52,683 bases of DNA from an uncultured Alphaproteobacteria bacterium. Lineage in GTDB: Bacteria; Pseudomonadota; Alphaproteobacteria; CAIYWZ01. The stretch spans positions 1-52,683 of the forward strand of contig CAIYWZ010000001.1 in assembly GCA_903930075.1 (NCBI GenBank). The letters are read 5' to 3'. Both the position numbers and the translations under genes were made by a program. The notes below the pieces were generated by a model. That model worked only from the letters and a program-made list of their open reading frames with translations. It was not told the DNA's origin and did no database searches. Below are positions 15,421-35,084 of the stretch, one piece after another (the first letter of the stretch is position 1; every line of letters begins with the position of its first letter).

Positions 15421-15436
15421 ATTTTTCCATCAAATT

Positions 15437-15471: not shown

Positions 15472-15476
15472 TATGT

Positions 15477-15965: not shown

Positions 15966-15974
15966 TTTTTTCTC

Positions 15975-17018: not shown

Positions 17019-17024
17019 GAACCC

Positions 17025-18011: not shown

Positions 18012-18970
18012 GCGGCCAATCCTCCAGAGGTTGTAATTTTAAGATCAGGGCGCTCTTCCAAACATTTGGGCATACAAAAATCACAGCGATCTTGGAACGA
18101 ACAGCCTTTTGAGAGTTGCCCCAAACTTGGTGGATTTCCAGGGATCGCCACGAGAGATTCTTGAACGTTTTGGTCCATGCGAGGGGTGGAATTTAACAAA
18201 CCTTGTGTATATGGGTGGAATGGATTATAGAAAATATCATTTACATCTCCTTTTTCTACAATTCTTCCTCCGTACATGACATGAACCCTATCACAGATTT
18301 GGGCCACAACGCCTAGGTCATGGGTAATCATAATAATGGCGGTTTTAAAGTCCTTTTTGAGCTCCAGCATTAAATCTAAAATCTGAGCTTGTACGGTTAC
18401 ATCCAATGCTGTTGTTGGTTCATCGGCGATCAGAATATCTGGTTCACATAGCAGAGACATCGCAATCATAACCCTTTGACGCATTCCGCCAGAGAGTTCA
18501 TGTGGATAGGATTTCAGCCGCATTTTGGCTTCTGGTATTTTAACACAATCGAGCATCTCTAGAGATTTTTTTTCTGCGTCACTCCAGGACAGTCCTTTAT
18601 GATAAACCAAAACCTCACTCATCTGTTTAGAAATGGTTAAGTATGGATTTAAAGATGTCATGGGATCTTGGAAAATCATCGAAAGATGATGTCCTCTGAT
18701 TTTATTGAGCTTTTCAAGAGGGAGATTCAGAATCTCTTCACCCTTAAAAAGAGCGCTTCCTGAGGCTCTTCCATTGGAAGCCAAAATTCCCATAATGGAC
18801 ATAAAGACTTGGCTTTTACCCGCTCCAGATTCGCCAACAAAGCCTAAAACTTCGCTTTCAAAAATATCAAAGCTGACATTATGAACAGCTTCTACGGGAC
18901 CATCATTTGTTAAGAATGTTGTTTTTAGGTCAACAACAGAAAGAATAGGGGTTTTCATGTTTTCACTCAT
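17996..18970 (-). CDS. oppD: Oligopeptide ABC transporter ATPase OppD
   Basis: 324 aa. GESGAGKS, LSGGMRQR, ILIADEPTTALD, and a C-terminal Cys cluster. Confidence 0.9.
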   Translation of the reverse strand: MSENMKTPILSVVDLKTTFLTNDGPVEAVHNVSFDIFESEVLGFVGESGAGKSQVFMSIMGILASNGRASGSALFKGEEILNLPLEKLNKIRGHHLSMIFQDPMTSLNPYLTISKQMSEVLVYHKGLSWSDAEKKSLEMLDCVKIPEAKMRLKSYPHELSGGMRQRVMIAMSLLCEPDILIADEPTTALDVTVQAQILDLMLELKKDFKTAIIMITHDLGVVAQICDRVHVMYGGRIVEKGDVNDIFYNPFHPYTQGLLNSTPRMDQNVQESLVAIPGNPPSLGQLSKGCSFQDRCDFCMPKCLEERPDLKITTSGGLAACHLI

Positions 18971-19830: not shown

Positions 19831-20747
19831 TATTCGTACCTCACTTTTGGATCCAATATTCCATAAAGAATATCTACAATTAAATTGAAAAGGATAATAA
19901 TGATCCCATAAAATACAACAACGCCCATCACAAGTGTATAATCACGATTAAGGGCTCCCAAAACGAAGAATCTTCCAATTCCTGGGATACCAAAAATTTT
20001 CTCAATGACAACAGACCCCGTGATAATTCCTGCAGTTGCTGGCCCTAAATAGGATACAACCGGTAACAGCGCTCCTCTTAGAGCATGACGCGCAAGAATA
20101 ACTCTTTCTGGTAATCCCTTTGCTTTTGCAGTTCTGATATAATTACTGCGTAAAACTTCGATCATGCTTCCTCTGGTGAGTCTTGCAATATATGCAATTT
20201 GTGGAAGGGTTAAGGCGATAATGGGTAAAACCATGTGTTTAAGATCTCCCCATCCTCCAACGGGCAAAAGCCTTAAATAAACACCGATCACAAGACTCAA
20301 AAGAGGCGCCATCACGAAACTTGGTATTGTGATTCCTGTCATGGAAAATCCCATAATGAGGTAATCAACGCGGGTGTTTTGCCGCAATGCCGCAATTGTT
20401 CCCAAGAAAATCCCAATAATCGCTGCTAAAACGATGGCAATACCTCCAATTTTCAAAGAAACAGGAAACCCTTGAAAAATAAGCTCAGAGACTGTGTGAT
20501 CTTTGTATTGAAAAGAGGGCCCAAAGTCGCCTTGCAAAATTCCCCAGAGATAGCGCCCAAATTGTTGATACAACGGCTCATCTAAATGATATACTTTGTT
20601 TAAATTTGCAATAATTTCTTCAGGGAGCTGACGTTCTTGATCAAACGGTCCGCCAGGAGCCATTCGAATCATGAAAAAGGAGATCCCAATAATGACAAAA
20701 AGTGTTGGGATTGCTCCTAAAATTCTATTTAAAATGAGTCTGAGCAA
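19830..20747 (-). CDS. oppB: Oligopeptide ABC transporter permease OppB
   Basis: 305 aa. OppB-type N-terminus LRLILNRILGAIPTLF. TTG start with AGGAG 9 nt upstream. Confidence 0.9.
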   Translation of the reverse strand: MLRLILNRILGAIPTLFVIIGISFFMIRMAPGGPFDQERQLPEEIIANLNKVYHLDEPLYQQFGRYLWGILQGDFGPSFQYKDHTVSELIFQGFPVSLKIGGIAIVLAAIIGIFLGTIAALRQNTRVDYLIMGFSMTGITIPSFVMAPLLSLVIGVYLRLLPVGGWGDLKHMVLPIIALTLPQIAYIARLTRGSMIEVLRSNYIRTAKAKGLPERVILARHALRGALLPVVSYLGPATAGIITGSVVIEKIFGIPGIGRFFVLGALNRDYTLVMGVVVFYGIIIILFNLIVDILYGILDPKVRYE

Positions 20748-20759
20748 ATAACTATTCTC

Positions 20760-22367
20760 CTATTCTTGAAGGTCTATCCATCTGGAAAGATGGTGGTCCA
20801 TTGCGTTGGTTTTATAACCTGAAACTTTTTCTGATACAAGAGAATTTGTGACAAAGTAATAAATAGGAGCAATCACAAAATTAGACATCAGCTCTTTTTC
20901 GGCATTAGCCAAATTTTCTATTCTTTTTTTGCCTGTTGTTTTTGCACTCTCGTCTAAATACAGATCATACTTTGGTGAAAAATGTCCAGGGGTATTTCCA
21001 ATGCCGGTATCAGATCTAAATAGGCTTAAAAAAGCGCTTGGATCTTTATAGTCTGCAATCCATCGTTGCCTGAAGACATCGTATTCTCGTTTTTCTTTGG
21101 ATGCCAAGTATACTTTCCACTCTTTGTTGGTGAGCATGGTCTCGACTCCCAAAACTTTTTTCCACATTCCTGCAACGGCAATGGCAATTTTTTTATTGCT
21201 ATCGTCTGTGTTGAAAACAATCTCGATGGGTGTGGCTTTATTATATCCGACTTCTTTGAAAATATCTTGAGCAATCTTGTTTCTTTGTTCTTGAGTCAAG
21301 CTTTTGCAAGGAACCAATCCGGAGTCGCTTTGGCATTGCATTTCTTGAGGAGCATAGTCTCCTTCAGCTGGGGGAACGAAAGAATAAGCTGGATTTTCAT
21401 CGCCTTTTGTGATTTGTAAAACAATTTTTTCACGGTCGATTGCAAGGGACAAGGCTTGTCGAATCTTGGGGTTATCAAAGGGAACCCTCGTATTGTTAAA
21501 TGCATAATAATATGTTGCATACATGGAATTGGATTTATAATTTGCAGGCATATCTTTTTTGATGATTTCAATTTGTTCAGTGGGAACAGTAAATGTCAGA
21601 TCTAAATCACCCGCCTTAAATCTTTTATATTCAGCTTGACGGTCATCTATTGGATAAAAAATGACACCATCTAATTTTACATTAGCCGCATCCCAATAGG
21701 CTGGGTTTTTTTTCAATTTGACATAAGATTGGGGAGCCCACTCTGAAATGATAAATGCTCCATTGCTAACCATGGATTCTGGGCGCATCCATCTGTCAGG
21801 ATTGCTTTCGATTGTTTTTTGATGTAAAGGAACCATGGATTGATGTGCGACAAGCGTTAAAAGATAAGGTGTTGGCTCATTTAAAGTTACAATAAACTTA
21901 TAATCGCCATCTGATTTGACCCCTAAATCCGTTAGGGGTTTTTCACCTGTAGAAATTTCTTTAGCATTTTGAATGGGATAAAACATATAAGACCAAGTGG
22001 AGGCTGTTTTAGGATCCACAGTGCGTCTCCATGCATACACAAAATCCTCAGCTTTGACGGGGTCACCATTAGACCATTTTGCATTTTCTCTTAAAAAGAA
22101 CGTATAAGTTTTTCCATCTTCGCTGATTTCCCATTTTTCCGCAGCTCCTGGGATAAGTGCTCCATCTGCGGCTGTTGATAATAGACCTTCTAGCTGATCT
22201 AAGATGATTTTGCCTTCTGCTGCACCAGTTGTTTTTTGAGGATCTAAGCTTTGGGGCTCAATGCCATTTCCTCTTTTTAATATTTTTTCAGCCAGAGCTG
22301 TGTCGCAAAGTCCAAAAATGATTTGTGTGCATATAGCTATGCTTGTAAACATTGATTTTTTTAACAT
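20760..22367 (-). CDS. oppA: Periplasmic oligopeptide-binding protein OppA (family 5 SBP), paralog 1
   Basis: 535 aa. Signal peptide followed by the mature EKILKRGNGIEPQSLDP sequence typical of OppA/MppA. Confidence 0.85.
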   Translation of the reverse strand: MLKKSMFTSIAICTQIIFGLCDTALAEKILKRGNGIEPQSLDPQKTTGAAEGKIILDQLEGLLSTAADGALIPGAAEKWEISEDGKTYTFFLRENAKWSNGDPVKAEDFVYAWRRTVDPKTASTWSYMFYPIQNAKEISTGEKPLTDLGVKSDGDYKFIVTLNEPTPYLLTLVAHQSMVPLHQKTIESNPDRWMRPESMVSNGAFIISEWAPQSYVKLKKNPAYWDAANVKLDGVIFYPIDDRQAEYKRFKAGDLDLTFTVPTEQIEIIKKDMPANYKSNSMYATYYYAFNNTRVPFDNPKIRQALSLAIDREKIVLQITKGDENPAYSFVPPAEGDYAPQEMQCQSDSGLVPCKSLTQEQRNKIAQDIFKEVGYNKATPIEIVFNTDDSNKKIAIAVAGMWKKVLGVETMLTNKEWKVYLASKEKREYDVFRQRWIADYKDPSAFLSLFRSDTGIGNTPGHFSPKYDLYLDESAKTTGKKRIENLANAEKELMSNFVIAPIYYFVTNSLVSEKVSGYKTNAMDHHLSRWIDLQE

Positions 22368-22402
22368 TTTAAACCTCTTATCTTAAAAATAAATTCACGA
22401 AA

Positions 22403-24022
22403 CTATTCAGTGATATCGATCCATTTGGAAAGGTGATAGCCCATAGCGCTTCCTTCATAACCGCTTAGAACCTTGTCAGAGACAAGATTATTCTCAACGA
22501 AATAGTAAAGAGGTATAATAGGAAAATCTGACATCATTTGCTTTTCTGCGCCCATCAGATAATCCATTCTTTCTTTCAGGTCTTTTGAAGCCGCTCCTTT
22601 GATCATTAAATCATCATACGCCTTGGAAAAATAACCAGCTGTATTGTCCGCGCCACTGTCAGATTTTAACAAGATCAAAAACGTATTTGGATCGTTGTAA
22701 TCTGCTCTCCAGACTTGTCTATAAAGCTCATAATCTCTTTTTTCTCTGGCGGCAAGGTATACTTTCCATTCCTTATTGGTCAGTTCTGTTTCGACGCCCA
22801 AAACAGATTTCCACATACCCGAAAGGGCAATGGCAATTTTTTTATGGTTCTCATCCGTGTTAAATACTATTCTTATGGGCTCGCCTTGTTTGTATCCGGA
22901 TTCTGCAAAAATCTTTTTAGACAAAGCTTCTCTTTGTGATTGTGTCAAACTTTTGCAAGGAACAAGATCGCTTGTGTCTGATAAACGGCATTGAATTTCT
23001 TGAGGTGTGTAGTCTCCTGGGGCTGGTGGAACCATTGAGTATGCAGGCTTTTCATCTCCTTTGGTCACTTGTTTTACGAGTTTTTCTCTATCTACAGCAA
23101 GAGCTAGAGCTTGACGAACTTTTGGGTTATCAAAAGGAGCCTTTGTATTATTAAAACTGTAATAATAGCTTGAATACATAGGCGTTGACCTGTAATTATT
23201 GGGCATTTGGGCTTTTAATGTTTCAATCTGATCCGCAGGAACCATTCTTGTGATATGGATGTCTCCTGTTTTAAAGCGCTTGAGCTCTGCTTGACGATCA
23301 TCTATTGGGTAAAAAATCACGCCATCTAGTTTCACGCTAGATGCATCCCAATATTTGGGATTCTTTTTAAGCTTAACGTGTAACTGGGGGGACCACTCTT
23401 CCAGGATAAATGCGCCATTGCTGACAAAATTTTCAGGTCTTGTCCATTTATCGCCATGGGTCTCAACAGTTTTTTGGTGTAAGGGGAACATACAAGGGTG
23501 TGACACAAGGGATAAAAAGTAAGGGGTTGGAGCGTTTAATGTTACAACGAGTTTGTATTTTCTATCGGATTTCACACCCAACTCTTCAATTTTTTTTACT
23601 CCTTTGCCAATATCGGCTGCGTTGACAACAGGAGAGATAATAAATGTCCAATTGGAAGCGGTTTTAGGGTCAACCATTCTTCTCCATGCATAGACAAAAT
23701 CATCCGCAGTCACGGGGTCTCCGTTAGACCATTTTGCGCTTTCTCTTAAAAAGAATGTATACGTCTTTCCATCTTCGCTGACTTCCCATTTTTCTGCAAC
23801 GCCTGGGATCATTGTTCCATTAGACGATACGCTTAACAAGCCTTCAGCAAGATCTCCAAGAATATTTGATTCTGGAACGCCCGATGTTTTGTGTGTGTCC
23901 AAGCTTTGAGGTTCTGCGCCGTTGCCACGTTTTAAGATCTTCTCAGCGCAGAGTATTTGAGGGGCATTGACAACAACTTGGGACAAAACAGCTGCCAATA
24001 TAAATATTTTATTGATTTTCAT
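22403..24022 (-). CDS. oppA: Periplasmic oligopeptide-binding protein OppA/MppA-like, paralog 2
   Basis: 539 aa, collinear with paralog 1. It has a signal peptide and the same EKILKRGNGAEPQSLD start of the mature protein. Confidence 0.85.
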   Translation of the reverse strand: MKINKIFILAAVLSQVVVNAPQILCAEKILKRGNGAEPQSLDTHKTSGVPESNILGDLAEGLLSVSSNGTMIPGVAEKWEVSEDGKTYTFFLRESAKWSNGDPVTADDFVYAWRRMVDPKTASNWTFIISPVVNAADIGKGVKKIEELGVKSDRKYKLVVTLNAPTPYFLSLVSHPCMFPLHQKTVETHGDKWTRPENFVSNGAFILEEWSPQLHVKLKKNPKYWDASSVKLDGVIFYPIDDRQAELKRFKTGDIHITRMVPADQIETLKAQMPNNYRSTPMYSSYYYSFNNTKAPFDNPKVRQALALAVDREKLVKQVTKGDEKPAYSMVPPAPGDYTPQEIQCRLSDTSDLVPCKSLTQSQREALSKKIFAESGYKQGEPIRIVFNTDENHKKIAIALSGMWKSVLGVETELTNKEWKVYLAAREKRDYELYRQVWRADYNDPNTFLILLKSDSGADNTAGYFSKAYDDLMIKGAASKDLKERMDYLMGAEKQMMSDFPIIPLYYFVENNLVSDKVLSGYEGSAMGYHLSKWIDITE

Positions 24023-24187: not shown

Positions 24188-26128
24188 ATGAATGAACTTT
24201 TGTGGGAACCAAGCTCGCAGCGGATAAAGAAAACTCAACTTTTTAAGTTTACCCTTCAAATCAATCAAAAATTTGGGACAAGTATTAAAAATTTTGATGA
24301 CCTTCATCATTTTTCTGTTTCTAACCCGGGTGATTTTTGGAGTGCAGCTTATGATTTTTTTGGTGTGATTGGGTCTAAGGGCGATTTAATTTATAAAGAA
24401 AGCGACAAATTTCATGAAAGTCAGTTCTTTCCAGATGCAACGCTTAATTTTGCTCAAAATCTGCTTGTGGCCTCTGGAGATGAGGAGGCCATTGTTTTTT
24501 GGTCAGAAGACGGTAAGCGTCTTTCTTATACGTTTACTCAAATTAAACGCATGGCTTTGTCTTTTGCCTCGGGTCTTAAAGAACAGGGCCTGCTCCCTGG
24601 AGACCGGGTGGCGGCCTATATCCCAAATATTCCAGAAGCGGCTACATGCATGATGGGAACCGCTGCCATTGGTGCTGTTTGGTCTTCGTGCTCCCCTGAT
24701 TTTGGGGTTGCTGGCGTTTTGGATCGTTTTTCTCAAATCGAACCCAAAGTTTTGGTCACAACGGATGGATATCTTTATGGCGGAAAAGTTTACTCAAACC
24801 TTGAAAAGCTTCCGGGCATTTTGGAAGGACTTCCAACGGTTGAAAAAGTAATTATTATACCTTTTATGAAGATCAAGGCAGAGTTTTTTGACCCGCGAAT
24901 GATTATGCTTGCAGATTTTACAGAGCCTCACGTGCAGAAAGAGTTTATATTCGAAGAATTTCCATTTGATCATCCACTTTATATTCTTTTTTCTTCAGGA
25001 ACGACGGGGAAACCCAAATGTATTGTGCATGCAGCCGGAAGAATTTTGTTGCAGCATTTAAAAGAACATCAGTTGCATATGGATATTCACTCTGGTGACC
25101 GGGTATTTTATTTTACAACCTGTGGATGGATGATGTGGAATTGGCAGGTTTCAGCCCTTGCAACTGGGGCAACATTGGTTCTTTTTGATGGATCACCTTT
25201 AGCGTGTAAAGGGAAGATACTCCTGGATTTAGCCAGATACGAAGCCGTTACCTTTTTTGGAATCTCAGCCAAATATATTAGCGCCATTCATAAAGCAGGG
25301 CTTGAGCCGATTAAAACGCACGAATTTCCAAAGTTGCGCACGATCGCCTCCACCGGATCTCCTTTGTCAGGGGAGAGTTTTGATTATATTTATCATTCTT
25401 TCAAAAATGATGTTCAGCTGGCCTCCATTTCGGGGGGAACGGATCTGGTGGGTTGCTTTGTCTTAGGGAATCCAATTGGCCCTGTATATAAAGGCGAAAT
25501 TCAAGCGCCAGGATTGGGTATGGAGATTGATGTTTTTGATGAACAGGGAAATTCTATTGAGCATGGGAAAGGCGAGCTTGTGTGTAAAAAGCCTTTCATG
25601 TCAAAGCCCCTGAAGTTTTGGAATGATGAAAATAACGAGAAATTCCTTGCCGCATACTTTAAAACCTACCCCAATATTTGGCACCACGGCGATTATATTG
25701 AGCGCACCGTCCATGGTGGGTTTATCATTCATGGCAGGTCAGATACAACACTTAATCCTGGCGGCGTGCGTATCGGAACAGCGGAAATTTATCGTCAGGT
25801 TGAAAAAGTGGAGGAAGTTTTAGAGTCTTTAGTGATCGGTCAAGAATTTGAAGATGATGTCCGTGTGATTCTGTTTGTTAAATTGCGTGAAGGATTTGAT
25901 TTAACCGATGAACTCAAAGCCAAAATCAAACAAAAAATCAAAGAAAACACAACCCCAAGGCATGTTCCTGCAAAAATCATCAAAGCACCCGATATTCCAA
26001 AAACAAAATCTGGAAAAATTACGGAGATTGCCGTTCATGATTTGATTCACGGCAAGAAAATCAACAATACCGAATCCATCGCAAATCCGGAAGTACTGTC
26101 ATTTTATGAGCATTTGGTGATTACATAA
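24188..26128 (+). CDS. aacS: Acetoacetyl-CoA synthetase (acetoacetate-CoA ligase)
   Basis: 646 aa. AMP-binding motif SSGTTGKPKCIV, an AacS-specific N-terminal region (LWEPS...FW), and a C-terminal KTKSGKI. Confidence 0.9.
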   Translation: MNELLWEPSSQRIKKTQLFKFTLQINQKFGTSIKNFDDLHHFSVSNPGDFWSAAYDFFGVIGSKGDLIYKESDKFHESQFFPDATLNFAQNLLVASGDEEAIVFWSEDGKRLSYTFTQIKRMALSFASGLKEQGLLPGDRVAAYIPNIPEAATCMMGTAAIGAVWSSCSPDFGVAGVLDRFSQIEPKVLVTTDGYLYGGKVYSNLEKLPGILEGLPTVEKVIIIPFMKIKAEFFDPRMIMLADFTEPHVQKEFIFEEFPFDHPLYILFSSGTTGKPKCIVHAAGRILLQHLKEHQLHMDIHSGDRVFYFTTCGWMMWNWQVSALATGATLVLFDGSPLACKGKILLDLARYEAVTFFGISAKYISAIHKAGLEPIKTHEFPKLRTIASTGSPLSGESFDYIYHSFKNDVQLASISGGTDLVGCFVLGNPIGPVYKGEIQAPGLGMEIDVFDEQGNSIEHGKGELVCKKPFMSKPLKFWNDENNEKFLAAYFKTYPNIWHHGDYIERTVHGGFIIHGRSDTTLNPGGVRIGTAEIYRQVEKVEEVLESLVIGQEFEDDVRVILFVKLREGFDLTDELKAKIKQKIKENTTPRHVPAKIIKAPDIPKTKSGKITEIAVHDLIHGKKINNTESIANPEVLSFYEHLVIT

Positions 26129-26135
26129 GCCCAGA

Positions 26136-28874
26136 TTATTTTGTCATTGTCAGCAATTGCTTCGTACGTTCATTGGCTTGAACAAGCATGGCAGAGGCCA
26201 TTTGATATTGAACACTCGATGAAGTCATTCGCGTCATTGCTTCTGGAATATCCGCGTCTATGAACTCTGCAATTGCAGATTGCATGTTGATAATATTGGA
26301 TGAAAGAATATCCTTGTTCACTTCCAGTTGTTTCTGTTGTGCTCCAAGATTTGCGTAGCTTTTATTGACAGCATTCATCGCTTGATCAATCAGAGCCGAG
26401 GCTTCTTGAGCGGCAGCTTGTGTGTTGATATCTGCATTGACCATATTCAAAGCTGAAAGGGTTACAGCTGGCAGTTTGATGGTTAAAACGTCTGTTGAAA
26501 GCTCGGCGACCTGGAAATCGATTGCCAGACCTCCTCCCGAGCTGATATCAAAGATACGCTGGGAAAGAGGCGTGTTCAATTGAAACGAGTCACCAAGCAG
26601 GGCGCTCACAGCATTGGAGAAAAGCACAACTTGTTTGCCGCCGTTGCTGACGTACTTTTCATAGGTATTGATCCCGTCACTGAGTTTAAAGATCCCGCTT
26701 AGACCCGATCCCTCTGGTTTATAACTCAAAGCATATTTCCCAGGGCTTGCGGATCCACCTGAAAGAATTCCATCAATTCCTGTTGTCCCCCCTGTTGCGC
26801 CAGAGTCTGGTTTAAACTGAGCCGGCGCCGTGCCATTTTGAAGTCCAAGAAAGTTTAAAAGTGTCGTATGAAACGTCACGCCATCTGTTACCGCAGAGGC
26901 TGTTTGAGATCCATATTGGAAAACCAGCTTGTTTTCTCCATCTGTGGTGCTCATCAATTCCAGAGTGCCATTATTGCTGGGTAAACTCACGGTATTGGTA
27001 TAAACTTGGTTTCCAACCGTGATGCTCACATCAAATTGACTTCCATTGGCTTTGACCAAAGCTTTCGTTGCAATCCCTGAAATAAATCCAGTACTGCTGC
27101 TAACAGAACTCGTAAATCCATACGTTGAATCTGCAGCTAAACCATTGGCCGTGATTCCTACATTTTGAACCGCAGTTCCACCAAAAGAAATATTGTTTTT
27201 TGTGAGTAACGTTTGCAAGTTTGTTGCAAAGGTTTGCGCACTGGTAATTCCGCTTGTATTACCAGCAAAAGTGATCGTCATCGTATTTTGTGAATTTGAA
27301 GTGCTGGTCAGGGTAAAAGTACCGCCAGATGATACTTGAATAATACCTTGGTTTTTAAAAATTTCCCCATTTTCCATGGTAACGACAACTTCGTTTGCGT
27401 TAATCACACCATTTGTATAGCTATTCACTGTGGTAGTAGATACTTTTCCATTGATGGTCCCAGTAAGATTCGAGTTATTAAGAGGAGCAAAAGCCACACT
27501 AGAAGTGATGGTTTCAGAGCTGGTGCTTACAAATACTGTATCTGTGGTAAATGTTGTTGCAAAAGCAGCTGCTGCATCTGTAAAACTCGTTGTTAGTCCT
27601 GTAATATTCGAATCAAGAACAACAGAAATTGTTTTTGTGCTGTCAGTTGTGTTGGTGAGTGTGAGTATTCCATTTACGCCAGGAGTAAACGCTGTTGCAT
27701 TGCTATATATTGATCCATCAGAGAGCGTGATGCTAAATTGATTTGCATCATAGCTGACGTCAGCTGCAGGAGAATCTGTGTTGAGTCCTCCAAATAAAAT
27801 ATTCAAAGCTGTAGAAAATCCTGAAGGAGTGTTGGCTTCTGGCCAAAAGGAGTTAGCGAGAGTAACACCCGGTAAATTATCAGAAGCCGTCACAAATTCT
27901 GTAGGAGGCGTGGAAGCAACATCTGGAAGAATCGAGTCAGCATGAACTTTAATTATATTGCCGCCGGAATCATCCGGCAGGTTATAAAAAGTTAGAGTTC
28001 TCCCGGCGTTCGTTGTGCTTGTAAAGATTGTCGGGGCGCTTGATGTCATACAATCAACTGGTGTAGTAGTATTAATATAAACTTCTGTTCCGATCGTAAA
28101 ACTTACTTGGGATCCATTACTTTGAGCTGAACCAGGCATAAAATCAGCAAGATGAATATTACCACTTTTTAAAATAGTCCCGCTAAAATTGAGTGTGTCC
28201 CATAATGCTGCGCTAGCTGTGGTTGCAGGCACCATTGTGGTTGGTCCATGAACTGCTGTAACTGTTGCATTTATACCGTTGGAGGCTGTGACAGTTCCGT
28301 TAAATCCATTATAGCTTGTACCAACATTTTCCACCGTGCATATTCCTAAATTTTGAACTACAGTTCCCCCCAAAGAATGGGTTGAACTGATTGCATTTCC
28401 AGAGGCATCAAAAAGACTGACGGCTGTTCTTGCAAGGATGGCCTCTCCAGCACCGCCGGCGAGCATGGAGACGCCGTTCCAACGGGTTTGAATAGAAATA
28501 TTGTCGATAAAATCTCGAAGTTTTATGAATTCTTCTCTGGCCATCATTTTGTCGGCATTGGAGAGGGATCCGTTGATGACTTGAGAGGTCAGCGTTTTCA
28601 TACGTGTTAGAACGTTGGAGATATTTCTTAAGCTGTCAGCAGCCACTTGGATCAAGGATGCCCCTTGCGAGGTGTTTCTTGAAGCCTGCACGAGCACATT
28701 CATCGTAGAAGTAAGAGTTGCTCCGATTGCGGTTTCTGCGGCCCCATCGGATGCACGGACAATACGTGAACCAGATGCAAGCTCTGCAATTGCTTTTGCG
28801 TTTATATCCGAGCCAACTCTAATACCCCGCTGCGCGTAAATTGATGCTGTGTTTATTGTTGCTGAAATTGCAAT
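26136..28874 (-). CDS. fliC: Giant flagellin paralog 1 (912 codons if translation starts at ATT 28874; the longest canonical-start ORF is 26136..28703)
   Basis: Flagellin C-terminal domain (LGAQQKQLE...MLVQANERTKQLL). The N-terminal flagellin domain continues in frame for 57 codons above the first ATG (IAISATINTASIYAQRG...ELASGSRIVRASDGAAETAIG), with 56/70 residues identical to paralog 2. The codon aligned to the paralog-2 ATG is ATT, and the same AGAAGGAAT SD sequence lies upstream. Confidence 0.75.
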   Translation of the reverse strand: MAISATINTASIYAQRGIRVGSDINAKAIAELASGSRIVRASDGAAETAIGATLTSTMNVLVQASRNTSQGASLIQVAADSLRNISNVLTRMKTLTSQVINGSLSNADKMMAREEFIKLRDFIDNISIQTRWNGVSMLAGGAGEAILARTAVSLFDASGNAISSTHSLGGTVVQNLGICTVENVGTSYNGFNGTVTASNGINATVTAVHGPTTMVPATTASAALWDTLNFSGTILKSGNIHLADFMPGSAQSNGSQVSFTIGTEVYINTTTPVDCMTSSAPTIFTSTTNAGRTLTFYNLPDDSGGNIIKVHADSILPDVASTPPTEFVTASDNLPGVTLANSFWPEANTPSGFSTALNILFGGLNTDSPAADVSYDANQFSITLSDGSIYSNATAFTPGVNGILTLTNTTDSTKTISVVLDSNITGLTTSFTDAAAAFATTFTTDTVFVSTSSETITSSVAFAPLNNSNLTGTINGKVSTTTVNSYTNGVINANEVVVTMENGEIFKNQGIIQVSSGGTFTLTSTSNSQNTMTITFAGNTSGITSAQTFATNLQTLLTKNNISFGGTAVQNVGITANGLAADSTYGFTSSVSSSTGFISGIATKALVKANGSQFDVSITVGNQVYTNTVSLPSNNGTLELMSTTDGENKLVFQYGSQTASAVTDGVTFHTTLLNFLGLQNGTAPAQFKPDSGATGGTTGIDGILSGGSASPGKYALSYKPEGSGLSGIFKLSDGINTYEKYVSNGGKQVVLFSNAVSALLGDSFQLNTPLSQRIFDISSGGGLAIDFQVAELSTDVLTIKLPAVTLSALNMVNADINTQAAAQEASALIDQAMNAVNKSYANLGAQQKQLEVNKDILSSNIINMQSAIAEFIDADIPEAMTRMTSSSVQYQMASAMLVQANERTKQLLTMTK
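27156..27494 (-). repeat. Flagellin module A (~113 aa) in its paralog-1 position, after module B
   Basis: AFAPLNNSNLTGTINGK...ISFGGTAVQNVG is the homolog of paralog-2 residues 171-283. A second GGTxVQNxG junction motif is retained at 28344-28370. Confidence 0.7.
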
Positions 28875-28906
28875 AATCGTATTCCTTCTATTTCATTCTT
28901 ATTTTT

Positions 28907-28942
28907 AAGAACTTGGACCTTGATGATTTGTGTCAAGTTCCT
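28907..28942 (-). promoter_or_regulatory. Conserved 5' UTR stem-loop of flagellin paralog 1
   Basis: GGACCTTGA/TCAAGTTCC imperfect hairpin, homologous in position and sequence to 32133-32168. Confidence 0.4.
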
Positions 28943-28957
28943 GATATGAGTTGATTA

Positions 28958-28973
28958 TGCAAGTTTTATGCCG
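28958..28973 (-). promoter_or_regulatory. sigma54-type -24/-12 promoter candidate (paralog 1)
   Basis: The minus strand reads CGGCAT-AAAAC-TTGCA. The invariant GG and GC are at the correct spacing, with two mismatches to TGGCAC-N5-TTGCA. Confidence 0.5.
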
Positions 28974-29006
28974 TATCGGATTATTTTTTGTGATGATCGA
29001 ATAATC

Positions 29007-29492
29007 TTACTCAGCTTCTAATTTTTCTACAAAATTGGAAATGAGCGGTTCTGTGATGAGGATTTGGGCTTTGGTGATGGGGTCTGTTACATCTTCGATG
29101 GTCGAAAGGATTGCTTCTATGGAATGGGCGAGTTGAATGGCTTTTTCGTCGTCTTTATGCCAATATTCTTCTCGTTCTAGTTTTTTAGCTGTGCGTTCTT
29201 CAGGAGTTAGATCTTTCCAGGATTTTTGACGTGTTTTTAAGTTGCCGTTTTCTTTGGCCCATTTTTTATAGGATTCTTGCTTGTCTTTCATAAAGGCATC
29301 AATGAGCTTCTTAATTTCTTGAATTTTATCGTGCTGAATCTGTTCCAGAACAATTTGTAAATCAAGCGCCATTTGATTTTTTTGGATATTTGCTTTCCAT
29401 GAGGTTTTCCAATCTTTATCAGATGCAAAAGCTTCATGATTGAACCCTGCGTTCAAAAAACAGACGATCAGAATTTTATTTAAAAGCCTCAT
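29007..29492 (-). CDS. Hypothetical secreted/periplasmic K/E-rich helical protein, co-transcribed with flagellin paralog 2
   Basis: 161 aa. Sec-type signal peptide MRLLNKILIVCFLNAGFNHEAFA|SD. AAAGGTGGA SD sequence, with the ATG 16 nt after the flagellin stop. No family recognised by eye. Confidence 0.6.
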   Translation of the reverse strand: MRLLNKILIVCFLNAGFNHEAFASDKDWKTSWKANIQKNQMALDLQIVLEQIQHDKIQEIKKLIDAFMKDKQESYKKWAKENGNLKTRQKSWKDLTPEERTAKKLEREEYWHKDDEKAIQLAHSIEAILSTIEDVTDPITKAQILITEPLISNFVEKLEAE

Positions 29493-29508
29493 TTTTTATC
29501 CACCTTTC

Positions 29509-32097
29509 TTATCTTGTCATTGTCAGCAATTGCTGCGTACGTTCATTGGCTTGAACGAGCATGGCGGATGCGATTTGGTATTGAACGCTCGATGAAGTCA
29601 TGCGTGTCATTGCTTCGGGAACATCCGCATCTATAAATTCTGAAATCGCTGCTTGCATATTGATAATATTAGACGAGAGAATTTCTTTATTTACTTCCAA
29701 TTGTTTTTGTTGAGCTCCAAGGTTTGCGTAGCTTTTATTGACCGAATCCATCGCCTGATCAATCAAAGCAGATGCAGCTTGAGCAGCGGCTTGTGTATTA
29801 ATATCGGCATTGACCATATTCAAAGCCGTAAGTGTTACGGCAGGTAATTTTACGGTCAAAACGTCTGTTGAAAGTTCGGCTACCTGGAAATCGAGTTGCA
29901 AGCCTCCTCCTAAGTTGATATCAAAGATACGTTGTGAAAGCGGAGTATCAACATGGAAAGAAGCCCCCAGCATAGCACTCACGCCATTGGAAAATAAGAC
30001 GACTTGTTTTCCGCCACTGCTGACGGATTGTTCATAAATATTGATCCCATCACTGAGTTTCAAAATTCCACTCAAGCCCGATCCATCAGGTTTATAGCTT
30101 AATGCATACTTTCCTGGCGCTGCAGATCCGCCTGAGAGAATACCATCGAGTCCTGTAATCCCTCCCGTTGCACCAGAATCTGGCTTAAACTGGGCAGGAG
30201 CTGTTCCATTTTGAAGGCCTAGAAAATTGAGTAAGGTTGTATTAAAGGTCACACCATCGGTTACAGCAGATGCTGTTTGAGATCCATATTGGAAAACCAG
30301 TTTATTTTCTCCATCTGTGGTGCTCACCAATTCCAACGTTCCATTATTGGTGGGCAAATCAACGGCGTTCGTATAGACTTGATTTCCAACTGTTACTGTC
30401 ACTTCAAATTTACTTCCATTTGGTGTCACAGAAGCATTCGTTGCAATTCCTGAAATAAACCCAGTACTGCTGGTGACAGGACTTGTAAATCCATAGGTTG
30501 CATCTGCCGCTAAACCATTAACGGTGATACCGCCGGAGTTGCTGGTGGCAAAGGTCGTACTTGTTGTAAGAGTTGTTGTAAAAGCAGTTTTTGCTTCAGC
30601 GGAATTTGTGGTGAGTCCTGTAATGTTAGAGTCTAAATTTAATGTAATTGTTTTTGTGCTATCAGTTGTATTGGTCAGAGTAAGTGTGCCATTTACGGTA
30701 GGAGTAAATTCTGTTGCATTATTATATGTTGATCCATCAGAGAGTGTGATGCTAAATTCACTTGCGCCATAACTGACATCTGCGCCAGTGCTTGTATCAC
30801 TTATATTTGTGAGTGCATTGAGTGCTATAGCAAAAGCAGCAGGAGTTGTTGGAGCAGTAGCTCCGTTAGTGAATGTTATCGTCCTGCCAGCATTTGTTGT
30901 GCTTGTAAAAGTTGTGGTACCTGTTGTATTTGCAGAACTCAAAGCTGTGGTATTTGTATAAATTTCTGTCCCAATCATAAAGCTGACCTGCGAACCATTG
31001 CTGTAAGCTGAATTTGCAGTAAAATTAGCAAGCGAAACATTACCAGTTTTTGCGACTGTACTGAAGTTTCCAGCACTTGAAGTTATAGTAGAAACTCCTG
31101 CACCTGCTGCTATCAATGTAACAGAACTATTAGTAACGGTTGTAACAGTCGCATCAATACCGTTAGATGCTTTAACTGTGCCATTGAATCCATACGTTGT
31201 TGGCGTATATCCATTATAGCTTGTGACAGCATTTTTAGCAGCTGAGGTTCCAACGTTTTGAACGGAGGTTCCGCCAAAAGAGGTATTGCTTTGTGTCAAA
31301 AGTGTTTGAAGGTTGGTTGCAAAAGTTTGAGAACTTGTAATTGCACTTACACTACTCTCAAAAGTAAGAGTCATTGTGTTTTGTGAATTTGAGGTGCTGG
31401 TGAGGGTAAAAGTACCATTAGCTGCTACCTGGACCACTCCCTGATTTTTAAAAACTTCTCCATTTTCCATCGTGACAAGAATATCATTGGCATTTACCAC
31501 ACCATTTGTGTAATTTTCGATCGTGACTGTTGAAACTTTTCCATTAATTGTCCCTGTAAGGTTGGAGCTATTTAAAGCCGCAAAAGCATTGCTAACGTTT
31601 CCTGTATCAGTAATTGCGTTACCAGATCCATCGAAAAGACTCACGGCTGTTCTTGCTAGGATCGCGTTTCCAGCTCCTCCTGTGAGCATGGAGACGCCAT
31701 TCCAGCGGGTTTGAGTGGAGATGTTGTCGATGAAATCACGCAGTTTGAGGAATTCTTCCCGGGCCATCATTTTGTCGGCATCGGAGAGGGATCCGTTGAT
31801 AACTTGAGAGGTCAGCGTTTTCAGACGTGTCAGGACGTTAGAGATGTTCCTTAAACTGTCAGCGGCCACTTGAATGAGGGAAGCCCCTTGGGAGGTGTTG
31901 CGCGAGGCTTGAGTGAGAACACCCATGGTGGAAGAGAGCCTGGCTCCAATTGCCGATTCCGCCGCACCATCGGATGCACGGACAATACGTGAGCCAGAAG
32001 CGAGCTCTGCAATTGCTTTCGCGTTCGTCTCAGAGCTTTTTTCAATACCCCTTTGTGAGTAAATCGATGCGTTATTCGTTGTCGCTGAAATGGCCAT
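29509..32097 (-). CDS. fliC: Giant flagellin paralog 2 (862 aa)
   Basis: N-terminal flagellin domain (MAISATTNNASIYSQRG...LASGSRIVRASDGAAESAIG...TQASRNTSQGASLIQVA). C-terminal flagellin domain (LGAQQKQLEVNKEIL...MLVQANERTQQLL). The central region of about 600 aa is T/S/N/G-rich. Confidence 0.85.
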   Translation of the reverse strand: MAISATTNNASIYSQRGIEKSSETNAKAIAELASGSRIVRASDGAAESAIGARLSSTMGVLTQASRNTSQGASLIQVAADSLRNISNVLTRLKTLTSQVINGSLSDADKMMAREEFLKLRDFIDNISTQTRWNGVSMLTGGAGNAILARTAVSLFDGSGNAITDTGNVSNAFAALNSSNLTGTINGKVSTVTIENYTNGVVNANDILVTMENGEVFKNQGVVQVAANGTFTLTSTSNSQNTMTLTFESSVSAITSSQTFATNLQTLLTQSNTSFGGTSVQNVGTSAAKNAVTSYNGYTPTTYGFNGTVKASNGIDATVTTVTNSSVTLIAAGAGVSTITSSAGNFSTVAKTGNVSLANFTANSAYSNGSQVSFMIGTEIYTNTTALSSANTTGTTTFTSTTNAGRTITFTNGATAPTTPAAFAIALNALTNISDTSTGADVSYGASEFSITLSDGSTYNNATEFTPTVNGTLTLTNTTDSTKTITLNLDSNITGLTTNSAEAKTAFTTTLTTSTTFATSNSGGITVNGLAADATYGFTSPVTSSTGFISGIATNASVTPNGSKFEVTVTVGNQVYTNAVDLPTNNGTLELVSTTDGENKLVFQYGSQTASAVTDGVTFNTTLLNFLGLQNGTAPAQFKPDSGATGGITGLDGILSGGSAAPGKYALSYKPDGSGLSGILKLSDGINIYEQSVSSGGKQVVLFSNGVSAMLGASFHVDTPLSQRIFDINLGGGLQLDFQVAELSTDVLTVKLPAVTLTALNMVNADINTQAAAQAASALIDQAMDSVNKSYANLGAQQKQLEVNKEILSSNIINMQAAISEFIDADVPEAMTRMTSSSVQYQIASAMLVQANERTQQLLTMTR
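31249..31587 (-). repeat. Flagellin module A (~113 aa) in its paralog-2 position, directly after the N-terminal domain
   Basis: AFAALNSSNLTGTINGK...TSFGGTSVQNVG is the homolog of paralog-1 ORF residues 404-516. Confidence 0.7.
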
Positions 32098-32132
32098 AAT
32101 CTTTATTCCTTCTAGTTTATCATTCTTTATGT

Positions 32133-32168
32133 AGGAACTCGAACCTTGATGATTTTTATCAAGTTCCT
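32133..32168 (-). promoter_or_regulatory. Conserved 5' UTR stem-loop of flagellin paralog 2
   Basis: GAACCTTGAT/ATCAAGTTC stem with one bulge and a 7-nt loop. An alternative outer pairing is AGGAACT/AGTTCCT. Confidence 0.4.
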
Positions 32169-32183
32169 GACAGGAGTTGGTTA

Positions 32184-32199
32184 TGCAATTCCTGTGCCA
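32184..32199 (-). promoter_or_regulatory. sigma54-type -24/-12 promoter (paralog 2)
   Basis: The minus strand reads TGGCAC-AGGAA-TTGCA, a perfect match to TGGCAC-N5-TTGCA, about 85 nt upstream of the ATG. Confidence 0.65.
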
Positions 32200-32295
32200 A
32201 GATTTAAAAATGGAGAAATTTTATTGTTAATACTTTGTTTACCGAACACTTTTAAGATCAATTTAATCACGACTCAATGAGAAGGTAGTTATATT

Positions 32296-33957
32296 ATGTT
32301 GAATACAGAATTTATAGAAAACTGTTTTAAAGCTCAAAAGGCATTTGGGGACGTTTTTAAGGGGAAGATGGATGAGGGGATGGATATGCATATGCATATG
32401 CAAACTTCGTCGGATATTTCCCATAGCCTTTTTGACTTTTTGCAGTATATGATGAAAAATCCAGAGCAAATCCATGCGTTTCAGAGTCAATTTATCCAGA
32501 ACCAAGCAGAGATTCTGAAAAATATTTCCCACAATGAGACTCCCCTGCCCTTTAAAGATAAAAGATTTAAGGGCGATGCTTGGAATGAAAATCCTTTTTA
32601 TACGTACCTTTCTCAATCTTATTTAAATTTAAGTCAGCAAGTGCAAAAAACTTTAAAAGATCTTGAATCTGCCGAGCCGGAGATGGGATTAAAGGTGAAA
32701 TTTTATTTAAATCAATTGTTAGATGCGCTTTCTCCCTCAAATTTTGTCATGACGAATCCTGAGATTTTGGAGACCACCCTTAAAACACAAGGGGCGAATT
32801 TGAAGGAAGGGTTTGAAAAGCTCGCCAAAGATTTACAAGATTCACCAAATTTTAAAATGAACCCTGAAGGGGCTTTTAAGGTGGGGGAGAATATCGCAAC
32901 AACCCCAGGAGATGTTGTTTTTAAAAATGAATTGATGGAGCTAATTCATTATAAGCCTAAAGGAAAAAAGACGTATAGCATTCCCTTACTCATCATCCCC
33001 CCTTGGATCAATAAGTATTATATTTTTGATTTGAGCCCGGAAAACTCCTTTGTGAAATGGCTTGTTTCTCAACAAATAGATGTTTATATCATTTCCTGGG
33101 TTAATCCCCAAGCAGGGCAAAAGCAAATTTCTTTTGAAGATTACATGACAAAAGGGATTATGGAAGCTGAAAAAGAAATTCTAAAATTTACATCCTCGAA
33201 GGAAATTAATTTCTTAGGGTATTGTTTAGGAGGGATTCTTCTTTCCTGTTACATGGCGTATATGGGGGAAAATAAGATTTCTACCGCAAAATCCGCAAGT
33301 TTCTTTGCCACTCCCCTTGATTTTACAAAGTCTGGAGACTTAAAACTGTTTGTCAATGAGAAGAAAATCAATTATTTAGAGAATCTAATGGATAAACAGG
33401 GAGTTTTAGACGGCAATATTTTATTCCAGGTTTTCAGTATGCTTCGGTCTAAGGAGATGGTTTGGGATACTCTTGTAAATACATATATGCTGGGCAAAGA
33501 TCCAAGGCCCTTGGATTTTCTTTTTTGGAACAGTGATGTGACGAATTTATCTGGGGAGATGTATAAATTTTATGTGCGTAAGTTTTATCTTGAGAATAGT
33601 TTTTTCAAAAAAGATAATTTGAGTCTTAAAAATACCCCCATTGATTTGAGCAAAATTATGGCCGAAACCTTTTGGCTCTCTACCCGGGACGATCATATTG
33701 CGCCTTTCTCATCCACGCTTTCGGGGCTTAATCTTTTGAAATCTCCGTTTGAATTTGTCTTGGGTGAATCAGGGCATGTGGCGGGGATTTTTAATCCGGC
33801 AAAGTCTTTAAAATATGGATTTACATCGGGAGATGAATATAAAAGCGGATCCTGGTGGCCCCATTGGTTAGATTGGCTCACCCAAAGGTCGGGAACTTTG
33901 GAAAAAATCATGGAGATTCCAGGGTTATATCCGGCTCCTGGAATGTATGTGAAATAA
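32296..33957 (+). CDS. phaC: Class I poly(3-hydroxyalkanoate) synthase PhaC
   Basis: 553 aa. Lipase-box GYCLGG with catalytic Cys, DKRFKGDAWNENPFY, and a C-terminal GHVAGI histidine motif. Confidence 0.9.
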   Translation: MLNTEFIENCFKAQKAFGDVFKGKMDEGMDMHMHMQTSSDISHSLFDFLQYMMKNPEQIHAFQSQFIQNQAEILKNISHNETPLPFKDKRFKGDAWNENPFYTYLSQSYLNLSQQVQKTLKDLESAEPEMGLKVKFYLNQLLDALSPSNFVMTNPEILETTLKTQGANLKEGFEKLAKDLQDSPNFKMNPEGAFKVGENIATTPGDVVFKNELMELIHYKPKGKKTYSIPLLIIPPWINKYYIFDLSPENSFVKWLVSQQIDVYIISWVNPQAGQKQISFEDYMTKGIMEAEKEILKFTSSKEINFLGYCLGGILLSCYMAYMGENKISTAKSASFFATPLDFTKSGDLKLFVNEKKINYLENLMDKQGVLDGNILFQVFSMLRSKEMVWDTLVNTYMLGKDPRPLDFLFWNSDVTNLSGEMYKFYVRKFYLENSFFKKDNLSLKNTPIDLSKIMAETFWLSTRDDHIAPFSSTLSGLNLLKSPFEFVLGESGHVAGIFNPAKSLKYGFTSGDEYKSGSWWPHWLDWLTQRSGTLEKIMEIPGLYPAPGMYVK

Positions 33958-33958
33958 C

Positions 33959-34492
33959 TTACTTTAAGTTTTTAGCCATATTGTAACCGGTTAGAAAAAA
34001 ACCTTCTCTGGTGTATAGTTTTTTTGCCCCCTGATTGTGGCCGAAAACATGGAGGCGGACTTTTTTGGCGCCAAATTCTTTTGCTTTTTCTTCGTAAATT
34101 TTTAAAAGAGCTGTCCCGTATCCTTTATTTTGAAATTCTTCAAAAATGCGAATATCATATAAAAAACCTTCGGTTTGATCATCTTCAATAATTCTCATAT
34201 ACCAAAGGGTTCCAACTTTTTTACCACTATCGACAGCAATCACGTCAAATATATAGTTATTTGGGGTTTGGGCCCCTAGGGGAAGAATACCTAAAAATTC
34301 TGCTATTTCTTTGCTTCTGACCTGCGGTTCTGGATCTTTATCATTTTTTACAACGTTTTCAATCGATCCTTCGATGAAGCGTGCTTTCAATGCTTTAAAA
34401 CTTTCATCATCCATTTCTTTTAAAGTTACTTTTTTAGCATTTGCATGGAGACCAATTGCAAACAGCAATATAAATGAAAAGAGTATATTCAT
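33959..34492 (-). CDS. GNAT-family N-acetyltransferase with N-terminal signal peptide (paralog 1)
   Basis: 177 aa. Signal-like MNILFSFILLFAIGLHANA. GNAT motif A FQNKGYGTALL. C-terminal LHVFGHNQGAKKLYTREGF. Confidence 0.8.
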   Translation of the reverse strand: MNILFSFILLFAIGLHANAKKVTLKEMDDESFKALKARFIEGSIENVVKNDKDPEPQVRSKEIAEFLGILPLGAQTPNNYIFDVIAVDSGKKVGTLWYMRIIEDDQTEGFLYDIRIFEEFQNKGYGTALLKIYEEKAKEFGAKKVRLHVFGHNQGAKKLYTREGFFLTGYNMAKNLK

Positions 34493-34502
34493 TGGTTGTT
34501 CC

Positions 34503-35084
34503 TTAATTTAAATTTTTCGCCATATTATAACCGGTTAAGAAAAAGCCCATTTTCTCATAAAGTTTTTTAGCTCCTTGATTATGGGCAAAAACATGTAACC
34601 GAAGTTTTTTTGCGCCTATTTCTTTGGCTTTTTGTTCATAAAGCTTTAAAAGAGCCGTTCCATAGCCTTTGCTTTGAAATTCTTCAAATATACGAATATC
34701 AAAGAGAAAAAAGATTGGATTTTCCCCTTCTGTATATTTCAAGAACCAAACAGTGCCGACTTTTTTTCCTGTATCTTTGGCGACCACGTCATAAATAAAA
34801 TTGTTAGGCGTTTCCAATCCCAAAGGCAAATTTCGTCCAAATTCTTTGATCGCTCGTGCGCGCGTTACTTCTTCAGTATCACGGTCGTTTATCATGCGAT
34901 TTTCAACTGATCCTTCGATATACCGTTCTCTGAAAGCTTTGAATCCTTGCGTATCCATTTCCTTGAGGATGATTTCTTGGACACGCGTTTCTTTTTTTTC
35001 TGTTGACTTCCAAGACCACGCATTTGTTTCCGTTGTTACGAATGCGCTCAAAGATAAAACTAAACATAAGATGATTTTTTGCAT
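34503..35084 (-). CDS. GNAT-family N-acetyltransferase with N-terminal signal peptide (paralog 2)
   Basis: 193 aa. Signal-like MQKIILCLVLSLSAFVTTETNA. 54/63 residues identical to paralog 1 across the acetyl-CoA-binding half (by eye). Confidence 0.8.
   Translation of the reverse strand: MQKIILCLVLSLSAFVTTETNAWSWKSTEKKETRVQEIILKEMDTQGFKAFRERYIEGSVENRMINDRDTEEVTRARAIKEFGRNLPLGLETPNNFIYDVVAKDTGKKVGTVWFLKYTEGENPIFFLFDIRIFEEFQSKGYGTALLKLYEQKAKEIGAKKLRLHVFAHNQGAKKLYEKMGFFLTGYNMAKNLN

Follow-up and report, generated by a model that had tools for sequence, protein, structure and literature searches.

Two large flagellin paralogues with a lineage-restricted outer-domain repeat in an uncultured alphaproteobacterium

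Two large flagellin genes, flaA and flaB, lie on a 52.7-kb contig (CAIYWZ010000001.1 of assembly GCA_903930075.1; the whole of this stretch of DNA is called the window below) from an uncultured freshwater alphaproteobacterium of about 40% GC, and they probably encode genuine late-class structural flagellins that would assemble into a thick, decorated filament. They are a lineage-specific version of a known phenomenon, the growth of large flagellins by internal duplication, and not a new kind of system. A sequence-only reading of the window had reported two large flagellin paralogues of about 860-910 amino acids (aa) with a secreted-looking open reading frame (ORF) between them. The ORFs are indeed found there, with measured lengths of 862 aa for FlaA and 912 aa for FlaB when the latter is counted from an ATT codon, and among the functions proposed at that time a thick filament fits best. 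The two genes and their parts are as follows (nt, nucleotides).

29509..32097, minus strand: flaA, large flagellin of 862 aa with an ATG start, identified as an ORF with Pfam, PDB and orthologue matches.
26136..28874, minus strand: flaB, large flagellin paralogue, 912 aa from the ATT at 28874-28872 or 855 aa from the ATG at 28703.
29863..31620, minus strand: outer-domain region of flaA (aa 160-745), with modules R1, M2a, R2, R3, R4 and M5.
32183..32199, minus strand: sigma-54-type -24/-12 element of flaA, TGGCACAGGAATTGCAT, about 100 nt 5' of the ATG.
28957..28973, minus strand: sigma-54-type -24/-12 element of flaB, CGGCATAAAACTTGCAT, which aligns with the flaA element.
32098..32182, minus strand: leader (5' untranslated region) of flaA, with the hairpin AGGAACTTGA...TCGAGTTCCT and the ribosome binding site (RBS) GAAGGA.
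28875..28956, minus strand: leader of flaB.

The ends of both proteins are those of flagellins, in agreement with the helical N- and C-terminal domains recognised at first sight. FlaA matches Pfam Flagellin_N (2e-23) and Flagellin_C (3.5e-13), FlaB matches the same two families (1.8e-13 in its ATG-started version, and 1.1e-12, respectively), and the best NCBIfam matches of both proteins are flagellin models. When FlaB is read from the ATT, its residues 2-148 match flagellin models. The ends of FlaA also align with solved flagellar filament proteins from the PDB (E = 1e-25), over aa 8-143 and aa 766-862, the latter segment reaching the chain end with its final residue included. FlaA is thus laid out as an N-terminal D0/D1 part (about aa 1-165), an outer region (about aa 165-745) and a C-terminal D1/D0 part (about aa 745-862). 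The D0/D1 end domains of FlaA and FlaB are complete, and, as members of this family, the proteins would leave the cell by the flagellar type III gate and polymerise via D0/D1 into the filament core. The core motif SGSRIVRASDGAAE, which had been singled out as atypical, is present, but in the alignment each of its positions has a counterpart in the canonical SGLRINRAGDDASG of solved flagellins, and the large-flagellin family conserves it; it is a mild conservative variant, and its peculiarity had been overstated. Identity with FlgL, the hook-filament junction protein, was rejected because flagellin models score higher (89-94 bits, versus 57-65 bits for the FlgL model TIGR02550, under its cut-off of 127) and because the nearest relatives hold the fliC position directly before fliD-fliS. 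An enzymatic flagellin (flagellinolysin) was also considered and set aside: only the flagellin ends match Pfam or NCBIfam at E <= 0.01, and there is no PDB fold match.

Between these ends, the central regions span about 580-630 aa and are composed of 16-19% threonine, 12% serine, 11% glycine, 9-10% asparagine and 9-10% alanine, which bears out the original description of a T/S/N/G-rich centre of about 600 aa. In FlaA, this region comprises the modules R1 (about aa 171-272), M2a (about aa 300-354), R2 (about aa 355-440), R3 (about aa 441-520), R4 (about aa 524-628) and M5 (about aa 636-730). R1-R4 are mutually homologous repeats, with 30-38% identity between modules in an off-diagonal, segment-wise BLAST. 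In hhalign comparisons of module profiles cut from the family alignment, the six R1-R4 pairs gave E = 1.3e-10 for R1/R3, 6e-7 to 2.4e-5 for four others and a weak 0.0015 for R2/R3, and M2a and M5 proved unrelated to the R modules. An AlphaFold2 (AF2) model of FlaA residues 160-745, built on a 56-sequence alignment, reached a mean predicted local distance difference test score (pLDDT) of 84.3. In this model, every R module has a set of beta strands with one helix after them, and M5 is all-beta; the centre is predicted to fold into about six beta-rich globular modules projecting from the core. A model of the whole protein (8-sequence alignment) was poor, with a pLDDT of 55.7 and only weak flagellin matches in Foldseek, and was discarded. 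Comparison of the central structure with known domains, which had been suggested as a check, was carried out with Foldseek against the PDB and at a threshold of E <= 1e-3 yielded nothing, not even the outer domains of large flagellins of known structure; recurring weak matches to OspA, ribosomal uL6 and TolB were not taken as evidence. Likewise, the outer region matches no adhesin or enzyme family in Pfam or NCBIfam. In a filament, these outer modules would form a thick, heavily decorated, Thr/Ser-rich and possibly glycosylated surface.

Full-length homologues of 850-892 aa, 55-58% identical to FlaA, occur in a few metagenomes and in one metagenome-assembled genome (MAG) labelled 'uncultured Alphaproteobacteria bacterium', and scans of species-representative genomes and JGI metagenomes yielded no large-flagellin contigs beyond those already found. 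A search with the central region alone against 1.84 billion representative proteins gave 55 matches at E <= 1e-3. Most of these are flagellins of about 495 aa, whose residues ~150-378 align to FlaA ~515-745, i.e., to R4+M5 only, at 30-40% identity; one of the 55 is named 'flagellin [Holosporales bacterium]'. In a neighbour-joining tree of D0/D1, the large family (the 850-912-aa proteins and the basal 734-aa P0008) forms a single, long-branched clade nested within the ~495-aa proteins, and flagellins of 730-872 aa, in a clade of their own, have expanded independently. The ~495-aa flagellins are the evolutionary parents of the large family: an ancestor of about 495 aa with a two-module outer domain (R4+M5) grew by the addition of three R copies and one unrelated module, as homology shows.

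FlaA and FlaB are sisters in the D0/D1 tree. The two genes most likely stem from a tandem duplication within the lineage (synonymous divergence, dS, about 0.8-1.2), and both have since been under purifying selection. Nei-Gojobori estimates of the ratio of nonsynonymous to synonymous divergence (dN/dS) between flaA and flaB are 0.11 for the N-terminal, 0.17 for the central and 0.06 for the C-terminal part, at a dS of 0.8-1.2; between the orthologues at loci L005 and L006 they are 0, 0.04 and 0.02, respectively, at a dS of 0.54-1.2. The modules of FlaB were reordered after the duplication. Its module order is permuted, with the R1 block of FlaA (aa 163-313) sitting at FlaB aa 453-596, and it carries an extra insert of about 50 aa (aa ~300-352). 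Since all orthologues have the order of FlaA, that of FlaB is derived.

Each gene would be transcribed from its own sigma-54 (RpoN) promoter of the -24/-12 type, like late-class flagellar genes, with RpoN holoenzyme and a flagellar activator acting after the basal body and hook are complete, and with a conserved structured leader following the promoter. The pattern GGC-N7-TTGCAT has only two matches in the window, which lie about 100 nt 5' of flaA and of flaB, and the GG at -24 and GC at -12 of the consensus (TGGCAC-N5-TTGCA) are found in both, as TGGCACAGGAATTGCA at -102 and CGGCATAAAACTTGCA at -99. A hint at rpoN in the sequence-only reading was therefore apt, as both flagellin genes have sigma-54-type promoters. 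The two elements are not independent evidence, because both upstream regions are paralogous. The element is kept 5' of the orthologues at loci L004, L005 and L006, although the flanking non-coding DNA has diverged. It also precedes the large flagellin of L018, the normal-sized relatives in L008 and L014 and the first flagellin of L016/L017, beginning in these loci 59-165 nt upstream of the called start. Most flagellin genes examined in the extended family have the element; the exceptions, with none found upstream, are P0155 of L013 and the second gene of the tandem pair in L016/L017. The strict pattern has a background frequency of 0.024 per 300 nt.

Promoter and leader are identical at 82/99 positions (83%) between flaA and flaB, which exceeds the 52-56% identity of fourfold-degenerate sites in the adjoining coding DNA, which indicates constraint on the leader of either gene. 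Recent gene conversion between the two genes was rejected, given that identity at the fourfold sites is just 52-56%. The leader hairpin is marginally more stable than shuffled sequences (z = -1.6), and no Rfam family matched across 25900-32400. In both leaders, AGGAAC/GTTCCT flanks a hairpin and a further AGGA stands at the RBS, an arrangement that could be the binding site of a post-transcriptional regulator.

With respect to genomic context, the sequence-only reading had described the genes as orphans with no other flagellar gene in the 52-kb window, and this holds when every ORF of at least 100 aa in the window is scanned: no flagellar gene besides flaA and flaB was detected. Orphan status is no anomaly, however, as had been implied, but the rule for the large flagellins examined. 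The orthologues lie at differing loci, each amid housekeeping genes, and every large flagellin examined, in this clade and in the neighbouring one, is an orphan among housekeeping genes. The shorter flagellins, in turn, are followed by a FlaG-like ORF, fliD and fliS (L008, L016/L017) or directly by fliD and fliS (L014). A homologue search with the FliD of the Holosporales-labelled MAG (L008) gave six matches, none in the giant-flagellin clade. The same MAG carries, at 14978-18356, fliC-flaG-fliD-fliS followed by genes for a heme oxygenase, a bacteriophytochrome histidine kinase and a response regulator, a possible light-sensing module beside filament genes. Two large flagellin types (P0004/P0201 and P0005/P0006) co-occur at two housekeeping loci in two unrelated samples, as L004/L012 (metagenome GCA_013558295.1) and L006/L018 (run SRR32119621), and may be unlinked paralogues of one genome and not of two organisms. 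In the independent clade, large flagellins of 795 and 725 aa form an orphan pair (L013/L022; Logan SRR13555242 contig 8041), divergent and 8 kb apart, amid Tat, ABC-transporter and lipoate-ligase genes.

The points that favour a flagellum are indirect: the candidate sigma-54 promoters, the constrained polymerisation domains, the descent from flagellins of fliD-fliS operons and a chemoreceptor gene in a syntenic relative. The latter is carried by contig JACCDN010534759.1 (locus L020), whose RpoB is 85% identical to that of the window. At 20645-22007, 8 kb past the end of synteny with the window, it encodes a methyl-accepting chemotaxis protein (PF00015, 2e-16), a hint of motility in the clade, and its tetranucleotide composition correlates at 0.98-0.99 with that of the giant-flagellin contigs of the same metagenome.

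Several observations weigh against an assembled flagellum made of both proteins. The flagellar apparatus, with fliD and fliS, is assumed to be encoded elsewhere in the genome. Hook, export, motor, fliD, fliS, flaG, rpoN and activator genes are all missing from the window, and no apparatus, fliD, fliS, flaG, rpoN or activator gene was found in about 20 kb around each of six orphan large-flagellin loci. The promoter assignment is drawn from a consensus match and its conservation. RpoB relatives 94% and 81% identical to the protein of the window are present in databases, yet no flagellin orthologue above 58% identity was found; this could be due to retention in some lineages only, or simply to incomplete assemblies. 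According to a review, a single member of the Holosporales has been seen with flagella, though several carry the genes (PMC11909080). Whether the organism belongs to this order is uncertain: its nearest named RpoB relatives, named alphaproteobacteria including free-living Rhodospirillales, are about 70% identical, and for BipA the identity with the Holosporales-labelled MAG is 71%. Finally, flaB has no canonical start codon and may have been silenced by a recent ATG-to-ATT change, and the same flaB sequence, ATT included, occurs in three assemblies that may derive from one sample.

As for this start codon, a mechanical ORF list begins flaB at the ATG at 28703 (855 aa). Homology to flaA runs 57 codons upstream of this ATG, up to the ATT at 28874, which aligns with the ATG of flaA and of all orthologues and has the same GAAGGA RBS at the same spacing (28869-28880, minus strand). 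Because the frame and the similarity to flaA extend upstream behind the same RBS, FlaB is taken to be 912 aa long from the ATT. Over codons 2-57, that is, the 56 codons between the ATT and the first ATG, the ratio of the proportions of nonsynonymous and synonymous differences (pN/pS) is 0.25, and this segment has therefore been translated for most of the time since duplication. No stop codon or frameshift interrupts the 912 codons. The ATT would be either one of the rare non-canonical initiation codons or the mark of a start codon lost only very recently. Since flaB starts at ATT, it is probably weakly translated, and its product would be a minor or conditional subunit, unless the gene has very recently been silenced.

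It is conceivable, though rather doubtful, that only flaA is functional, flaB having recently been silenced by the ATG-to-ATT change or being translated from Met58 without the N-terminal D0 segment, which would make its product non-exportable. This possibility concerns flaB alone and is compatible with a structural role of FlaA in a thick filament. It gains from the ATT standing exactly where flaA and all orthologues have ATG, and from the derived rearrangements and two Cys residues of FlaB. In the bacteria studied, initiation at AUU is very weak, infC being an example. Set against this are the low pN/pS of codons 2-57, indicative of translation through most of the post-duplication period, the preserved RBS and its spacing, the conservation of the flaB promoter and leader, and a frame free of stops and frameshifts over its full length.

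A role other than that of a propeller is unlikely. The two products would then be flagellin-scaffold proteins exported via a flagellar type III system, possibly a reduced one, and, outside the cells of a protist-associated bacterium, would act as fibres for adhesion or host interaction, or as secreted surface proteins. In line with this, the relatives of the outer domain include a Holosporales-labelled MAG, and host-dependent Holosporales carry flagellar genes while flagella are almost never seen, for which a role in secretion has been proposed (PMC11909080). The outer region is also large, repetitive and without a PDB fold match, and fliD and fliS are not nearby, unlike in the normal-sized relatives. 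However, the D0/D1 polymerisation core is the most constrained part of the proteins (dN/dS of 0.06-0.11 between the paralogues and 0-0.02 between close orthologues), the outer region resembles no adhesin or enzyme family, and the chemoreceptor gene of the syntenic relative points to real motility. Moreover, the RpoB of the organism is an ordinary one, about 70% identical to that of free-living Rhodospirillales, and its association with a protist is only supposed. Also improbable is a more specific version, in which a largely non-motile, protist-associated alphaproteobacterium would export such fibres or surface proteins through the flagellar type III secretion system, with the repeat module as a novel domain for binding the host or shielding the surface; flaB, with its ATT start and shuffled modules, would then be a conditionally expressed antigenic or functional variant.

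It is very improbable that flaA and flaB are relics, persisting functionless or decaying after loss of the flagellar apparatus, as their orphan position, the missing ATG of flaB and the lack of a flagellin orthologue from the closest RpoB relatives (94% and 81% identity) could suggest, given that the frames of 862 and 912 codons are intact, that purifying selection is strong over the whole length among both paralogues and orthologues despite a dS of at least 0.8, that conservation of the promoter and leader exceeds that of synonymous sites, and that the sigma-54 element is kept across lineages with completely different flanking genes. The dN/dS and pN/pS figures exclude long-standing pseudogenes, and the suggestion of remnants made in the sequence-only reading is contradicted by purifying selection on coding sequence, promoter and leader.

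The remaining features of the locus are one small ORF and the two neighbouring genes, which lie outside the flagellin system.

29007..29492, minus strand: ORF161, hypothetical 161-aa Lys/Glu-rich helical protein with a signal-peptide-like N-terminus, an ORF with the RBS AAGGTGG.
24188..26128, plus strand: aacS, acetoacetate-CoA ligase (NCBIfam NF002937, 896 bits versus a cut-off of 639).
32296..33957, plus strand: phaC, class I polyhydroxyalkanoate synthase (Pfam PhaC_N, 1.8e-64).

ORF161 begins 16 nt past the flaA stop codon behind its own RBS, has a genome-like GC content at third codon positions (GC3) of 0.358, and is probably co-transcribed with flaA. It matches no Pfam or NCBIfam family, has no homologue in any fetched locus and is unrelated to the FlaG-like ORFs that occupy the same position in L008, L016 and L017. 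As no homologue is detectable, the case for ORF161 as a real gene is made by its sequence features.

The flagellin cassette had been thought to interrupt a coherent aacS-phaC pair, with an extremely tight boundary at aacS. This boundary is as described: aacS and flaB are convergent, with stops at 26128 and 26136 and a 7-nt gap between them. On the other side, phaC is divergent from flaA, and the 198-nt intergenic region contains the flaA promoter; phaC scores 550 bits against TIGR01838, under the cut-off of 622. The interruption itself finds no support. The GC3 of flaA, ORF161 and flaB (0.345-0.358) equals that of core genes (0.33-0.40 for rpoB, mutS, ligA, aacS and phaC), so there is no sign of recent acquisition, and recent horizontal insertion was rejected on the basis of this native composition. 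Comparison of the aacS-phaC junction among relatives, also suggested at the time, was limited to one readable syntenic relative, L020, in which the junction genes are not present: it is syntenic with the window from secE to ligA-GNAT and from there on carries unrelated genes, with phaC, aacS and flagellins all missing. Between the two lineages, the DNA to the right of the GNAT genes has clearly undergone rearrangement. No adjacent aacS-phaC pair was seen in any genome or locus read. In sister lineages, a polyhydroxybutyrate (PHB) depolymerase gene (PF06850) lies directly 5' of the flagellin operon (L008 8363-9727, L016 6519-7754, L017 299-1522), the side on which the window has its PHA synthase, and the neighbourhood of PHB genes and flagellins may therefore be old rather than an interruption. 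The depolymerases of L008 and L016 are orthologous (49% identical). An ancestral PHB-flagellin linkage may thus exist, but this is a hint only, as the PhaC of the window is not orthologous to that depolymerase (22% identity). The position of the flagellin genes between aacS and phaC is most likely incidental.

Elsewhere, the window encodes RecG, three MFS transporters, BipA, a transposase, two MurJ, MutS, GrpE, HrcA, an Opp transporter with two binding proteins, two GNAT acetyltransferases, LigA, RecN, BamD, Pgk, RpoC, RpoB, four ribosomal proteins and NusG, and its intergenic gaps are all of 408 nt or less. Tandem paralogue pairs are unusually common in it: two AmpG/MFS-like transporters, two MurJ flippases, two OppA-like binding proteins and two GNAT acetyltransferases (2460-4951, 9759-12858, 20760-24022 and 33959-35084), with the flagellins as the fifth pair. 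Both GNAT acetyltransferases have signal-peptide-like N-termini, and the syntenic relative L020 has a single GNAT gene after ligA. The sole mobile-element gene of the window encodes a DDE_5-family transposase (7373-8404, minus strand) and lies beside tRNA-His (6909-6985).

Taken as a structural flagellin pair, flaA and flaB add a small, previously undescribed family of 850-912-aa flagellins from uncultured alphaproteobacteria. They provide a traceable series from a putative two-module ancestor of about 495 aa to a six-module protein, a rare, lineage-restricted repeat module without a solved structural counterpart, a natural case of module reordering between paralogues, and a flagellin gene with what would be a non-canonical ATT start. 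Should these bacteria be symbionts of protists, which is how some relatives are labelled, expression of a thick flagellum would be relevant to their transfer to new hosts. The known diversity of outer domains is thereby widened, with no new mechanism involved.

Flagellins of more than 800 aa have been termed 'large' and those of more than 1000 aa 'giant'; they occur in many phyla, including alphaproteobacteria, and arise by internal duplication, and flagellins of more than 1000 aa form filaments of 30 nm or more (Thomson et al. 2018, PMC6248924). For flagellins above 800 aa, thick filaments of 24-30 nm are on record (PMC6248924, PMC11532411). Like those of Bermanella marisrubri and Oleibacter marinus (PMC6248924), FlaA and FlaB combine canonical D0/D1 ends with a greatly expanded centre, which has grown by stepwise internal duplication of an outer-domain unit, here R1-R4, of which the shorter relatives have one R copy. 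In contrast to them, FlaA and FlaB, at 862 and 912 aa, stay under the 1000-aa 'giant' threshold and belong to the 'large' class, and their repeat unit is another, lineage-restricted module (55 of 1.84 billion proteins). The filaments of such flagellins measure about 30 nm or more, and one made of FlaA and FlaB would be expected to be thick as well.

Also comparable is the 793-aa flagellin of Geovibrio thiophilus, which forms a 24-nm filament whose structure was solved by cryo-EM (PDB 9AU6; PMC11532411). It is similar in size and has several beta-rich outer domains (D2-D5), its genome encodes several flagellin paralogues of similar length, and the whole-length sequence alignment reaches E = 1.5e-7. 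However, the outer regions show no Foldseek similarity, and the R modules of FlaA are not evidently Ig-like. Hundreds of structural clusters are known among flagellin outer domains, and for many of these no structure has been solved (PMC11532411). In G. thiophilus, moreover, the three flagellin genes are divided between two operons, with two genes in one and a single gene in the other, whereas flaA and flaB are isolated among housekeeping genes.

Closer at hand are the ~495-aa Holosporales-like flagellins (P0153, P0156 and P0009), with an outer domain homologous to R4+M5 of FlaA, related D0/D1 domains and, as in flaA and flaB, a sigma-54-type promoter. They differ in having two outer modules only and in belonging to fliC-flaG-fliD-fliS operons, whose FlaG-like ORF, fliD and fliS have no counterpart beside flaA and flaB.

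Finally, sigma-54-dependent flagellin genes include fljK and fljL of Caulobacter crescentus, with FlbD, as well as flaB of Helicobacter pylori and flaA of Vibrio. Linkage among flagellar genes is common but not required, and the flaA and flaB genes of H. pylori are unlinked. The genes described here share with these systems a -24/-12 promoter, a position unlinked to the other genes of the flagellar regulon and the occurrence of putative major and minor paralogues. They differ in that their dependence on RpoN and an activator, neither of which is encoded in the window, is deduced from sequence.

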